Positions 15,954 through 24,569 of a stretch of 64,000 nt of DNA are shown here, one piece after another. The notes below the pieces were generated by a model. That model searched no databases. It was given only the letters and a program-made list of their open reading frames with translations, and was not told the DNA's origin. Made by a program: the position numbers and the translations under genes. Position 1 is the first letter of the stretch. The number at the start of each line of letters is the position of its first letter. This stretch comes from a virus, in the IMG/VR virus record IMGVR_UViG_3300043172_000501, positions 32,657-96,656 of that record; one strand, 5' to 3'.

Positions 15954-16007
15954 CCTGTCCAGAAACAAATTACTTGAATTAAACCCTACTAGCCTTTATA
16001 ATAAAGG
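15954..16007 (+). promoter_or_regulatory. Sigma70-like promoter with palindromic operator over the -10 box (copy 2)
   Basis: CCTGTCCAG (15954), TTGAAT 15974-15979, 17-nt spacer, TATAAT 15997-16002 inside CCTTTATAATAAAGG 15993-16007. Confidence 0.8.
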
Positions 16008-17302: not shown

Positions 17303-17518
17303 ATGACTAAAAGAAACTTTGACATAAAAAAGATTCAGAAGAAATCAGTCAAGACTGTCTGGAACCTAATGATAAGACAAATACAATATCAGCACAAAGG
17401 GATCTATATATATTACAGAGGTCATCTATTGCGTACAACAAAAAGAAGATCCCTTAGGATAATCTGTGAAGAAGAAAACTTAGTAACAGTAAAACAAATA
17501 CTGGAGGCAATCAGATGA
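17303..17518 (+). CDS. Hypothetical basic protein
   Basis: Packed ORF. Confidence 0.5.
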   Translation: MTKRNFDIKKIQKKSVKTVWNLMIRQIQYQHKGIYIYYRGHLLRTTKRRSLRIICEEENLVTVKQILEAIR

Positions 17519-18426
17519 AATACATTACACTCATCCTAATCATTTTAACTCTTGGCTGCTCTGGAGAGATGAGCCGAAGATATGTAGAGGTATCATATGG
17601 AACAGAACAGAGCGGAGACACAGGCACGAGCACTGGAGAAAATGAGATTAGAAGAGAGTGCGAAATCAATGGGCAGTGCGATACAAGAGGGCTTAGTTCC
17701 GATGGAGGACATAGTGGCCTGGATACTTCTACAGACACAGTCGCTGGTTCCAGTGACACAGGAACATCGTCAGAAATTGACAGCGGAACTTCAGGAATGG
17801 ATAATGGCGGAAGCGACTCAGGCTGTTATGACGAAACTGGAGAACTTCCATGTGGATATGATGACACCGGAGAAGATACCAGTATCATGGACAGTGAAAC
17901 CGGAACAGAATCCGACACCGAAGCCGATACTGATTGGCAACATACCGACACAGCAACCGAACATGTCGACACCGAAGCCAATGACACGGACACAAACCAT
18001 GACACCGAGAATGATACGGAAAGCGAAACAGAAACAGGAAGCGAAGTCGCCGATGGAACTGACAGTGGATGGGGAACTGATTGGGACAGTGACACTTCCA
18101 TGGGAGAAGACACAGAAGTAATAACTTTACTATGGGATGCTGATGCTCATCTTCTTGTCACATGGACAGAAGGCTTAAACGCTTGCGCTCTCGTTGGCTG
18201 GCGATTACCCACTATTGAAGAGGCTCAATCTATTCTGATGTCACCAACAGGTAATGGTTGCTGGTGGGATGAATCAATCTTTGGAGATTTGTGTTATGAA
18301 ATCTGGACACGAAATCCTGCAATCCCTCCACCTTATAATCAGCAGACAGTAAACTTTGTCTCAGGTGAGAGTCGATACCATCCATACACAAAACAAAAAT
18401 ACGCACTCTGTGTGCTTTCAGTCTGA
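17515..18426 (+). CDS. Lipoprotein with D/T/S/E/G-rich linker and C-terminal DUF1566 (Lcl C-terminal)-like domain
   Basis: GGAGG RBS; signal peptide and lipobox MKYITLILIILTLGC; TWTEGLNAC...GWRLPTIEE...IWT...ALCV. Confidence 0.8.
   Translation: MKYITLILIILTLGCSGEMSRRYVEVSYGTEQSGDTGTSTGENEIRRECEINGQCDTRGLSSDGGHSGLDTSTDTVAGSSDTGTSSEIDSGTSGMDNGGSDSGCYDETGELPCGYDDTGEDTSIMDSETGTESDTEADTDWQHTDTATEHVDTEANDTDTNHDTENDTESETETGSEVADGTDSGWGTDWDSDTSMGEDTEVITLLWDADAHLLVTWTEGLNACALVGWRLPTIEEAQSILMSPTGNGCWWDESIFGDLCYEIWTRNPAIPPPYNQQTVNFVSGESRYHPYTKQKYALCVLSV
17597..18121 (+). CDS. Nested +1-frame gene, paralogue of 18663-19208
   Basis: AGAGGT RBS; 17/38 ungapped identities to the N-terminus of the 18663 protein. 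Confidence 0.65.
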   Translation: MEQNRAETQARALEKMRLEESAKSMGSAIQEGLVPMEDIVAWILLQTQSLVPVTQEHRQKLTAELQEWIMAEATQAVMTKLENFHVDMMTPEKIPVSWTVKPEQNPTPKPILIGNIPTQQPNMSTPKPMTRTQTMTPRMIRKAKQKQEAKSPMELTVDGELIGTVTLPWEKTQK

Positions 18427-18438
18427 GGAATAATCAAA

Positions 18439-18657
18439 ATGAAACGACAAGATATTTTAAAGAATATATGTTTCTGGGATATGCGAAACCCCGAATGTGC
18501 ACAATTACACGGTTCTCAATTGCCCGATTCTAAATCTGAAGAAGAAGGTTGTCAATGTGGAAATTGTGCCGATGGCAAGACTAAACTCGCCCTCGCAATG
18601 CTAGATATGTCAGAAATGGTCTGCCGCACAAACTGTTTACTAAGAATGAGAGAATAG
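18439..18657 (+). CDS. Hypothetical Cys-rich protein
   Basis: LKNICFWDMRNP...CQCGNCADGK. Confidence 0.65.
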   Translation: MKRQDILKNICFWDMRNPECAQLHGSQLPDSKSEEEGCQCGNCADGKTKLALAMLDMSEMVCRTNCLLRMRE

Positions 18658-18662
18658 ATACA

Positions 18663-19208
18663 ATGAGCGATACGCCAAACAAATGGGGACAACAATCAAA
18701 AGAGATTGAACGTCTAAAATTAGAAGAGAGTTCTAAGTCCGTGGCTGGAGCTATCACACAAGGGCTCGTCACATTAGAAGAGGTCGTGGCTCGTGTAGCA
18801 GAACTAGTATTAAAACCGATAGCTCATGAGGAAACATTATCAATAATTACTAGAAGACTGACAGCGTGGACAGTGGAGCAGGCTACTCATAAATTATTAG
18901 AATCAGAAGTCTGGCCCCCACCAACCGATAGAGAAACTGATTACGCAGCGCATGTCGAAGAGTTAGGTAACAGTGTGAGATCTAGCCTTGGTATAGATCC
19001 ATCTTTATTAGGGCAATCATCAAACAGAGAAGAGTTTGAACCAGGAGAGCTAGTGTATTACCATCCGATAGCTGGTGAAAAAGAATATAAGAAACGCCCA
19101 GGAGTCATAATTAACTCAAGAGGTTCAGATATGTCTTATCGAGTAAGATTTAGAAATGAAAAAGAAAAAATAACCAATGACCTATTTTTGTCAAAGAGGT
19201 CATCATGA
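18663..19208 (+). CDS. Hypothetical protein: helical N-domain plus SH3/Tudor-like C-domain
   Basis: FEPGELVYY...GVII...YRVRF...LSKR. Confidence 0.7.
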   Translation: MSDTPNKWGQQSKEIERLKLEESSKSVAGAITQGLVTLEEVVARVAELVLKPIAHEETLSIITRRLTAWTVEQATHKLLESEVWPPPTDRETDYAAHVEELGNSVRSSLGIDPSLLGQSSNREEFEPGELVYYHPIAGEKEYKKRPGVIINSRGSDMSYRVRFRNEKEKITNDLFLSKRSS

Positions 19209-19867
19209 CAAGAGCAAAAGAACAAGCTAAGATGATTCAACAGATAGAGCGAGAAGCCAGGCGAGAGGTAGAATACAAGAAAGGAGATCCTGTTCTCTAT
19301 ATGCCTGAACACGCAAGAGCTATGTACCTTGATGAAGATTGCAAGAAAGGGATTGTGTCTAGTGTTAATAAGAAGTGGGTATTCGTAAAATATGATTGTG
19401 CAGATTGCACGATGGTAACAGGCGACGAACCCTATACTGCACAGGCGACTGACAGAGCCGACTTAAGACTGATTAGAGATAAGACCTTAGCAGAACGATT
19501 AAAAGACCAACAGACTACCATATTGAAGCAGACAGTGGACATGATGGAAGAAGGCATGTTCCTTGACGGGGAAGTGGTTTACTACAGAATAGAAAAAAGC
19601 TTTAGCAACAAACCATCTAACACCAACATGAGGGGTGTCATCAACGGCAGTGGGCAAGGCGACTACTATCAAGTGCTGATGGATAGAGATAACAAGAACA
19701 GAACAGTCCATAAGAGTTATCTTAGCAGAAAGAATGAGACACCAGAAGAGATTGAAGCACAGAAGAGACGGAACAGTGAAGCGCTACACGTCAGAATGCG
19801 ACAACGGGTGATAGATCATCCGTATTCAAAATTCATAAAGAAGAGAGAAAGTAAACCAATGTTTTAA
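19205..19867 (+). CDS. Hypothetical protein with two SH3/Tudor-like modules
   Basis: YKKGDPVLY...GIVSS and FLDGEVVYY...GVIN...YQVLM...LSRK. Confidence 0.7.
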   Translation: MTRAKEQAKMIQQIEREARREVEYKKGDPVLYMPEHARAMYLDEDCKKGIVSSVNKKWVFVKYDCADCTMVTGDEPYTAQATDRADLRLIRDKTLAERLKDQQTTILKQTVDMMEEGMFLDGEVVYYRIEKSFSNKPSNTNMRGVINGSGQGDYYQVLMDRDNKNRTVHKSYLSRKNETPEEIEAQKRRNSEALHVRMRQRVIDHPYSKFIKKRESKPMF

Positions 19868-23644: not shown

Positions 23645-24112
23645 ATGGGGAATGCAGTGTTAGGAATAGACCCAGGGGCAACATCAGGATGGGCAATCGT
23701 AAGTATATCAGCCAATCCTAAATTGCTCCGACATGGAATATTTAAGTTTAAAGATGACGCAAGTACAGTCAGGGAATTAACACTGGCACTCGATGGCCTA
23801 GAAGATACGGTTATCAAAACGTTCATTGAAAACCAGTTCGTCTCTAAGAACATTCAGTCCACAATGAAGATTTGTAAGAAAGCTGGACGATGGGAAGAAG
23901 CTTCTATCTACCACGGGATTGATGTTGAGTATATTTACCCCGCTACCTGGCAGAGTAAAGAACTGAATGGACACAAAAGAGCGACACTGAAGAAAGCGAG
24001 TATAGCGAAGTGCAAAGGGATATGGAACGTAAACCTCAAGGAAGATACAGCCGACGCCTCATTGATAGGTCGATATGCTGCCTTGCGCCAGTTCTTTATA
24101 CCCGGGCAATAG
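23645..24112 (+). CDS. RuvC-like Holliday junction resolvase
   Basis: VLGIDPGATSGW, FIENQF, YPATWQ, EDTADASLIG. Confidence 0.85.
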   Translation: MGNAVLGIDPGATSGWAIVSISANPKLLRHGIFKFKDDASTVRELTLALDGLEDTVIKTFIENQFVSKNIQSTMKICKKAGRWEEASIYHGIDVEYIYPATWQSKELNGHKRATLKKASIAKCKGIWNVNLKEDTADASLIGRYAALRQFFIPGQ

Positions 24113-24113
24113 T

Positions 24114-24569
24114 ATGGGCAGAGGGGTTCAATACTTTGGTCTTACACTTCAGAAAATTTGTAGGTTAGCATTATGTCAAAAGAGCGAAACAGATCACAGC
24201 GAAAGAATAATAGAACGAGACGATGTGATCGATGTGTTAGAAATAGAAGAGGCACAAGCCAGCAGATTTATAAGAGAGATGACACGCCGAGGTCTGATGG
24301 TATGTATCTACAAACCAAAACGCAGAGAAGGTCAAGGTCAGAAAAGCAAATACAAATTAACCAGGAAGTGGCAACGAATTGCCTACATCCTAGACAAAAA
24401 CGGAATTTTACCCGGCACATGCCAAGCAGAATGTTGCGAAGAAAGAGCCGAACCAGTAAGATTCAGATTAAAATTCTTTTGCAAATACCATCTAATGAAT
24501 ATCGGATGCGCTTTTTGCCCGAGAGAACGAACAGACAAATGCGCCAGATGCGCTGAGAGGAAGAATTAG
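24114..24569 (+). CDS. Winged-HTH plus Cys-rich C-terminus, putative regulator
   Basis: DVIDVLEIEEAQASRFIREMTRRGL; CxxxxC/CxxH/CxxC/CxxC tail. Confidence 0.5.
   Translation: MGRGVQYFGLTLQKICRLALCQKSETDHSERIIERDDVIDVLEIEEAQASRFIREMTRRGLMVCIYKPKRREGQGQKSKYKLTRKWQRIAYILDKNGILPGTCQAECCEERAEPVRFRLKFFCKYHLMNIGCAFCPRERTDKCARCAERKN

Follow-up and report, generated by a model that had tools for sequence, protein, structure and literature searches.

How does a phage genome come to hold one protein domain twice, once hidden in an alternative frame of another gene and once in a gene of its own? The question is raised by a 64,000-nucleotide stretch of viral DNA (hereafter, the window), which covers bases 32657-96656 of the complete 96,656-bp IMG/VR record IMGVR_UViG_3300043172_000501, a genome with direct terminal repeats. 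Here a gene for a 303-residue lipoprotein, read in frame 0, encloses in its +1 frame an open reading frame (ORF) of 174 codons (17597-18121), the longest same-strand embedded alternative-frame ORF of the genome, and the 5' part of this ORF is related to a free-standing gene 1 kb downstream (18663-19208). An earlier note on the locus had proposed that the DNA is dual-coding and had set two histories side by side: either the embedded gene was born by overprinting of a tolerant linker and later duplicated, or the lipoprotein absorbed an existing gene. Three independent sets of sequence comparisons support the conclusion that positions 17597-17851 carry protein-level information in both frames. 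Birth of the helical ORF by overprinting, followed by duplication out of the lipoprotein gene and fusion to an SH3-like domain, is the history that we favor, with modest confidence.

The embedded ORF and the downstream gene are paralogues. BLASTP aligns residues 4-78 of the embedded protein with residues 6-79 of the free-standing one at E 6e-10 (25 of 76 positions identical, 45 of 76 positive), and the alignment of the two proteins starts at Met1 in both. The ungapped match of 17 identities in 38 residues that first drew attention to the pair is correct when the translations are read directly. In a six-frame search of the 96.7-kb genome with the 181-residue free-standing protein, the embedded copy is the sole other match (E 3.5e-8). 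AlphaFold2 predicts three helices in the embedded copy (residues 2-30, 36-46 and 55-89; pLDDT 70-81) and, at low confidence, the same helix pattern in its paralogue, which is the structural comparison that the earlier note had proposed. In the downstream copy the frame equivalent to the lipoprotein is closed, as that note had also observed: five stops interrupt its 87 codons, the TGA at 18707-18709 among them.

Dual information content is visible in the silent sites of the overlap. We scored synonymous usage conditional on the amino acids, taking 240 windows of real genes as reference. Over the overlap, the +1 frame has a z of -4.96 against a real-gene minimum of -4.30, with 36 G residues at its third codon positions where 17.1 are expected (z 6.6), while frame 0 (z -0.46) and the paralogue (z -0.74) are normal. 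When the +1 protein is held fixed and its synonymous codons are drawn from genome usage, frame 0 averages 3.0 stops (P of none 0.029), against none observed, and its content of D/T/G/S/E/N is 49±4%, reaching at most 64% in 5000 trials, against an observed 75%. Conversely, when the frame-0 protein is held fixed, the score of the +1 translation against the paralogue averages 40±11 and never exceeds 84 in 2000 trials, against an observed 109. Each frame thus uses the silent sites of the other. Nucleotide identity to the paralogue over 73 aligned codons is 48, 66 and 32% at +1 positions 1, 2 and 3 (z 3.8, 7.6 and 0.2), a profile typical of selection on protein; at its synonymous sites the pair agrees no better than by chance, and these sites are saturated. 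The peak falls on +1 position 2, which is the wobble position of frame 0, and selection on the lipoprotein therefore leaves it unexplained. Synonymous usage, resampling and codon-position identity thus uphold the proposal of dual coding for 17597-17851.

The same does not hold for 17852-18121, to which dual coding had also been extended and where the +1 frame is open passively. Over the 89 residues of this tail, synonymous usage has a z of -6.3, and the tail probably arises passively, as a by-product of the acidic linker. The D/T/E codons of the linker lack T at codon position 2, which keeps the +1 frame open until it meets the first hydrophobic codons of the C-terminal domain of the lipoprotein, where GTA ATA supplies the closing TAA (18119-18121).

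The enclosing gene is a real one, as had been claimed. It is preceded by a GGAGG Shine-Dalgarno (SD) sequence, and in its type-II signal peptide, MKYITLILIILTLGC, K2 is followed by a hydrophobic core and then by L-G-C at Cys15, in line with the PROSITE PS51257 pattern (a basic N-terminal residue, a hydrophobic core, and then [LVI..][ASTVI..][GAS]-C with the Cys among the first ~35 residues). The disordered acidic tether changes in composition along its length: region 1, which extends to 17850 and lies under the helical domain, is rich in G/S/T/D, and region 2 in T/D/E. The G/S/T-type codons of region 1 are read as E, A, V, Q and L in the +1 frame. The C-terminal ~100 residues resemble Lcl_C proteins (PF07603, formerly DUF1566), matching the profile almost end to end (positions 9-116 of 117; E 9.7e-7) with Cys and Trp conserved; they differ in that the score of 29.5 bits lies below the Pfam gathering threshold of 34.9, and we therefore call the domain Lcl_C-like only; it would be a binding domain stabilised by its Cys residues. 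A PDB sequence profile search with the lipoprotein alignment returned nothing. In function, the lipoprotein is probably a binding protein held at the envelope on its long acidic tether; by analogy with other phage lipoproteins, it may serve in receptor masking or superinfection exclusion.

Which of the two frames is older can be asked of the relatives, IMG/VR contigs that we retrieved by terminase (52-67% identity) and whose whole records we then searched for the lipoprotein. Those that bear the lipoprotein have terminases 52-59% identical to that of the window. Orthologous lipoproteins have 301 residues in G001, a complete 95-kb genome, and 289 in G013, and in G003 the protein is split across the contig ends. 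Identity to the window protein is 36-37%; the signal peptide is common to all, as are a V-x-Y-G motif, a central DW, TGSE and, in the C-domain, the Cys/Trp pattern. The lipoboxes of the relatives read LVALAGC and FVAFFGC. None of the relatives' three lipoproteins, taken singly, has an Lcl_C (PF07603) match reaching E 0.01. The order lipoprotein gene, DUF7694 gene, terminase is the same in G001 as in the window; in G003 the lipoprotein gene is found at the ends of the contig. Neither the 181-residue protein nor its helical domain has a match in any of five related records, of which three are complete. The +1 frame of the relatives' linkers is open, over 137 codons in G001 and 119 in G013, where it encodes T/P/R repeats, and in part in G003. 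Between G001 and G013 the linkers differ by D/T/A/G swaps and a 12-codon indel, with 12, 7 and 19 differences at frame-0 positions 1, 2 and 3, a pattern that we read as a tolerant tether under selection in frame 0 only.

Phylogenetic distribution and codon usage are the accepted criteria by which an ancestral frame is told from one that arose de novo (PMC8227390, PMC3744397). On the evidence of these sequences, distribution clearly makes frame 0 the older, and synonymous usage appears to agree. The overprinting history fits better because the lipoprotein architecture occurs in relatives that lack the helical domain, because frame-0 usage is normal, and because open -1 frames are rare in real genes, a point to which we return below.

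Beyond this genome, the helical domain has no counterpart in the collections that we searched. A profile of the domain, run against 1.84 billion representative proteins, brought up no credible relative, and a word search of 5.8 billion proteins returned nothing but the domain itself. The profile gave a single extra match, to a 16-residue repeat in a 1003-residue protein (E 7e-5), which we judge to be spurious. Pattern scans of IMG/VR and JGI metagenomes, and blastn and tblastn searches of GenBank phages, likewise recovered the domain and the dual-coded gene only as themselves, and the embedded ORF is unrecorded by gene callers in the protein collections searched. As to function, PHROGs, Pfam and PADLOC gave only weak matches (DUF6891, E 0.009; HmaC, E 6e-4), ESM Atlas feature scores were at most 0.77, and Foldseek against the PDB had no match below E 3.

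In the history that we favor, the lipoprotein gene was inherited from the common ancestor of distantly related myovirus-like phages. Its tether needs only a D/T/G/S/E composition, hence codons without T at position 2, hence no +1 stops, and the frame-0 wobble bases double as the middle bases of +1 codons. This passive frame would then have gained a ribosome-binding site and a start codon through two point changes within a conserved motif. Where the window phage has GAG GTA TCA TAT GGA and so forms GAGGT-N5-ATG, its relatives have CAG GTC AAC TAC GGC (Q-V-N-Y-G), a comparison of bases that is illustrative and no proof, given 36% protein identity. The +1 frame would next have evolved an 85-residue three-helix domain, with its own synonymous sites keeping frame 0 stop-free and linker-like and those of frame 0 specifying the helical protein. 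Internal initiation on the shared mRNA would give a cytoplasmic 174-residue protein, in which the helical domain is followed by a basic tail rich in P/T/K/Q, a mirror image of the acidic tether. Finally, a second copy of the 5' part of the ORF would have arisen 1 kb downstream and been joined to an SH3/Tudor-like module akin to the one in the gene that follows, and the codon usage of the resulting gene would since have returned to normal. We infer that duplication ran from the embedded to the free-standing copy. The saturated synonymous sites of the pair indicate that it is old and that the free copy has lost any imprint of frame 0; the absence of F, Y and C from 80 residues of the free copy's N-domain, seen in 1.4% of windows, is a weak hint only. 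That one genome and its relatives display the whole life history of an overprinted gene, from passive frame to start, to a folded domain matured under constraint on both frames, and to escape by duplication and fusion to a local SH3-like module, is an attractive proposition to which we would give slightly less than even chances.

Several observations weigh against this history. The overlap is carried by one genome only, and the relatives are so distant, at 36-37% identity, that their lack of the helical domain dates the event only loosely. The openness of the +1 frame over 17852-18121 is trivial, and because a linker +1 ORF stays open without selection, openness alone is uninformative. Raw codon-usage correlation, of the Pavesi type, fails to separate the frames (rs 0.31 versus 0.32, where real genes have at least 0.56), and does not discriminate because the amino-acid bias of the linker depresses frame 0. 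No compositional ghost of the frame-0 constraint was detected in the free-standing copy, and the AlphaFold2 model of that copy has a pLDDT of only 45. A folded domain, moreover, would have to have arisen de novo.

Whether the embedded ORF is live is a separate matter. ATG 17597 is the first start following TAG 17585, and the site that had been described as its ribosome-binding site is present at the claimed spacing. An SD match of five bases or longer precedes 46% of genes and 6% of random sites, and the gene at 19205-19867 is preceded by the same GAGGT; at four bases or more, the figures are 74% of 117 ORF starts and 25% of random positions. With such signals, the +1 ORF may be translated today. 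Alternatively, the ORF could be a relic that once coded and is now untranslated and unselected, its frame held open by the linker while the free-standing copy does the job. The +1 openness of D/T linkers is indeed passive, to judge by the 137- and 119-codon ORFs of the relatives, the tail at 17852-18118 is clearly a by-product, and a redundant paralogue exists. However, the wobble bases of frame 0, which make no difference to the lipoprotein, still agree with the paralogue at 66%, when true synonymous sites agree no more often than by chance; the start codon, the SD and the stop just 5' of them are all intact at the homologous N-terminus; and the embedded domain is still predicted to form three helices. 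Such facts are compatible only with a recent loss of function, and we consider a relic unlikely. Judged from sequence, the intact SD, the ATG, the homologous N-terminus and the conservation at lipoprotein-neutral sites favor a live embedded copy, although recent silencing would look the same.

A second alternative reverses the order of events. The helical gene could be the older, with a copy of its 5' part landing in the lipoprotein gene, or with the lipoprotein ORF extending across it, and frame 0 then recoded to a linker. The ordinary codon usage of the free-standing copy is what an original would have, folded helical domains are easier to inherit than to invent, the linker is ~26 residues longer from the N-terminus to the conserved DW than in the relatives, and the raw codon-usage correlation favors neither frame. 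Yet the -1 frame of the paralogue has five stops, and a protein of this kind written in typical codons would bring about three into frame 0, as the resampling above indicates; -1 frames are open in 0.39% of 85-codon windows of this phage's real genes and in 0 of 1099 windows of 174 codons. With stops expected in frame 0, insertion would almost always destroy a conserved lipoprotein gene. The lipoprotein, at 303 residues, is close in length to the relatives' 301 and 289 and not ~85 residues longer, the start codon and SD are made from a conserved frame-0 motif, [QE]-V-x-Y-G, and the helical family is found nowhere else in the collections searched. Of the two histories in the earlier note, overprinting with duplication is thus the one that we retain, and absorption, burdened by the rarity of open -1 frames, seems improbable, a little more so than a relic. 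An artefact, whether an assembly frameshift joining separate genes or a chance likeness of low-complexity translations, is very improbable: the record is metagenome-assembled and D/T repeats do break assemblies, as in the G003 contig, but the match holds at E 6e-10 with compositional adjustment in a helical region that is not low-complexity, frame 0 is tuned across the overlap far beyond chance in a way that two compensating indels would not yield, the identical 303-residue product is on record from three contigs (perhaps not independent assemblies), and architecture and length agree with the orthologues. Programmed frameshifting was also considered, and no evidence called for it.

The free-standing paralogue, in the overprinting history the escaped copy, had been credited with the gain of an SH3-like domain. 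What stands of this is a weak likeness to Tudor and SH3 folds. AlphaFold2 gives the C-domain three strands at pLDDT ~40-50, and ESM Atlas structure rows place Tudor and integrase SH3 domains at TM 0.33-0.40. In the neighboring gene, residues 23-64 have a weak match to Phage_ProQ_C_like (PF24203, E 0.007), and residues 119-177 resemble the paralogue's C-domain (E 0.003). These matches, all of them weak, are what the putative SH3/Tudor-like identity of the C-domain rests upon. The repeats of 19205-19867, taken with the C-domain, suggest local shuffling of small modules. We had entertained a remnant of an SH3-like motif near the end of the +1 ORF (DGEL against PGEL and DGEV), and dropped it as a four-residue coincidence without BLASTP support.

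The helical domain itself may serve in dimerisation. When the two N-domains are modelled as a heterodimer, the ipSAE is 0.46 (runs of 0.55, 0.46 and 0.46) against 0.00 for the best control, with partner pLDDT of at least 71 and contact agreement between runs of at least 82%. Of 80 solved complexes, 58 reach the mark used here, as do 2 of 110 mismatched pairs; among those that passed at 0.60 or below are just 7 of the 80 solved complexes and both of the mismatches. We take the modelled heterodimer as weak support and do not count it as evidence.

The features discussed here are collected in Table 1.

Table 1. Features of the lipoprotein locus (positions in the window) and of the Cys-rich gene in relatives (positions in sequence pieces)
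Feature	Position	Strand	Description
Frame-0 lipoprotein gene	17515-18426	+	303 aa; lipobox signal peptide, then the acidic tether and the Lcl_C-like domain
Shine-Dalgarno GGAGG	17503-17507	+	7 nt 5' of the lipoprotein ATG
Signal peptide MKYITLILIILTLGC	17515-17559	+	ends in lipobox L-T-L-G-C, Cys15
Acidic low-complexity tether	17560-18123	+	~188 aa, mostly D/T/G/S/E
Lcl_C (DUF1566)-like C-terminal domain	18124-18423	+	Cys and Trp conserved; alignment with relatives
Embedded +1 ORF	17597-18121	+	174 aa; offset 17597-17515 = 82, i.e. +1
GAGGT SD-like site	17587-17591	+	5 nt before ATG 17597; made of frame-0 codons GAG GTA
Dual-coded stretch	17597-17851	+	+1 = predicted three-helix domain; frame 0 = tether region 1
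+1 ORF tail	17852-18118	+	basic, P/T/K/Q-rich, predicted disordered (pLDDT <50)
Free-standing paralogue	18663-19208	+	181 aa, normal codon usage
Paralogue helical N-domain	18663-18923	+	homologue of the embedded ORF
Paralogue C-terminal beta-rich domain, SH3/Tudor-like	19035-19205	+	weak likeness to second repeat of 19205-19867
Neighboring gene with two SH3/Tudor-like repeats	19205-19867	+	possible source of the paralogue C-domain
Cys-rich gene, piece from G001	L083 2698-2916	-	
Cys-rich gene, piece from G013	L086 566-784	+	
Cys-rich gene, piece from G003	L084 41-286	+	

The locus lies in a genome of phage character. The genes are all on the + strand, at a GC content of ~40%. Among the proteins encoded in the record are a large terminase, portal, tail sheath and tape measure, as well as baseplate proteins, a set that marks the phage as myovirus-like. 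Cultured phages are only distant kin, the top sheath match being 26% identical. A sigma-70-like promoter is found upstream of the lipoprotein locus (15974-16002), and as no + strand terminator is predicted from there to 20600, the locus is probably one transcript. ATGA start/stop overlaps join the gene at 17303-17518 to the lipoprotein gene (17515-17518) and the free-standing paralogue to its neighbor (19205-19208), and are consistent with translational coupling along a single transcript. A second promoter-like site, TTGACA-17-GATAAT with 11 of 12 matches (17777-17805, + strand), lies within the dual-coded stretch, 3' of both start codons; it could be due to chance or could be an internal promoter serving downstream genes. 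Elsewhere, directly 5' of the terminase gene, a 127-residue ORF in frame +2 (24173-24556) lies inside a 164-residue ORF (24075-24569). It ranks second in the genome by length among same-strand embedded alternative-frame ORFs, and a PHROG scan of this pair was uninformative.

In the relatives, a Cys-rich gene of 72-81 residues (CPxC ... VHVWGWWWKD ... CxxC) lies directly 5' of the lipoprotein gene in all three genomes that carry one, with no obvious counterpart beside the lipoprotein gene of the window. The G003 contig begins (G003:1-1873) and ends (G003:97601-99601) within the D/T repeat of its own lipoprotein, which means that assembly broke at the low-complexity linker; the G003 genome is probably circularly permuted or terminally redundant at this point. 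Despite the same gene order, GC content is ~65% in G013, 53% in the end fragment of G003 and 40% in the window, a disparity that implies very different hosts or long divergence.

Phage spanin genes, the Rz/Rz1 pairs, occur nested or unnested across phages; in the nested type, an i-spanin with a transmembrane helix at its N-terminus hosts a small o-spanin lipoprotein in its +1 frame. As in lambda Rz/Rz1, a same-strand gene is here wholly embedded in the +1 frame of a phage gene, one partner is a lipoprotein, and expression of the inner gene would call for internal initiation on one mRNA. The differences are several. In the window the lipoprotein is the outer gene and has 303 residues, whereas o-spanins are small; the embedded 174-residue protein lacks any hydrophobic stretch long enough to span a membrane; a lysis context is missing; and the genome holds nested and free forms of one domain as paralogues. 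We therefore rejected a spanin pair on architecture, the roles being reversed, the embedded protein lacking a transmembrane stretch and the long lipoprotein carrying a lectin-like domain.

Another parallel is found among overprinted viral genes, such as the tymovirus movement protein over the replicase, E within D of phiX174, and the sets compiled by Sabath et al. (2012) and Pavesi (2013) (PMC8227390, PMC3494269, PMC3744397). In these, as in the window, a widespread ancestral frame underlies a lineage-restricted frame of deviant usage, and a few point changes suffice to give a start signal. Unlike them, the window host is a 97-kb double-stranded DNA phage under little size pressure, the substrate is a low-complexity tether, and the new frame is predicted to be helical, not disordered, and has a free-standing paralogue. 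The set of Sabath et al. contains no duplicated genes, and that some genes have 'lost the overlap' is only speculated there (PMC3494269). We thus place the case among overlapping genes that arose by overprinting, unusual in its double-stranded DNA phage host, its tether substrate and its folded novel product, and above all because one genome also holds a free-standing paralogue.

Of the routes to wholly new proteins, overprinting is the best documented, and the later fate of such genes has so far been a matter of speculation. With nested and unnested copies 1 kb apart, sequence is enough to prove the protein information of the alternative frame, and escape by duplication is made testable. Acidic low-complexity tethers cannot close the +1 frame, and their silent sites are free to encode helix-forming residues. 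They may thus be preferred birthplaces of genes that standard annotation overlooks. If the whole life history set out above is true, acidic D/T/G/S tethers would be a general nursery for helical proteins, their wobble bases being the middle bases of the +1 codons.

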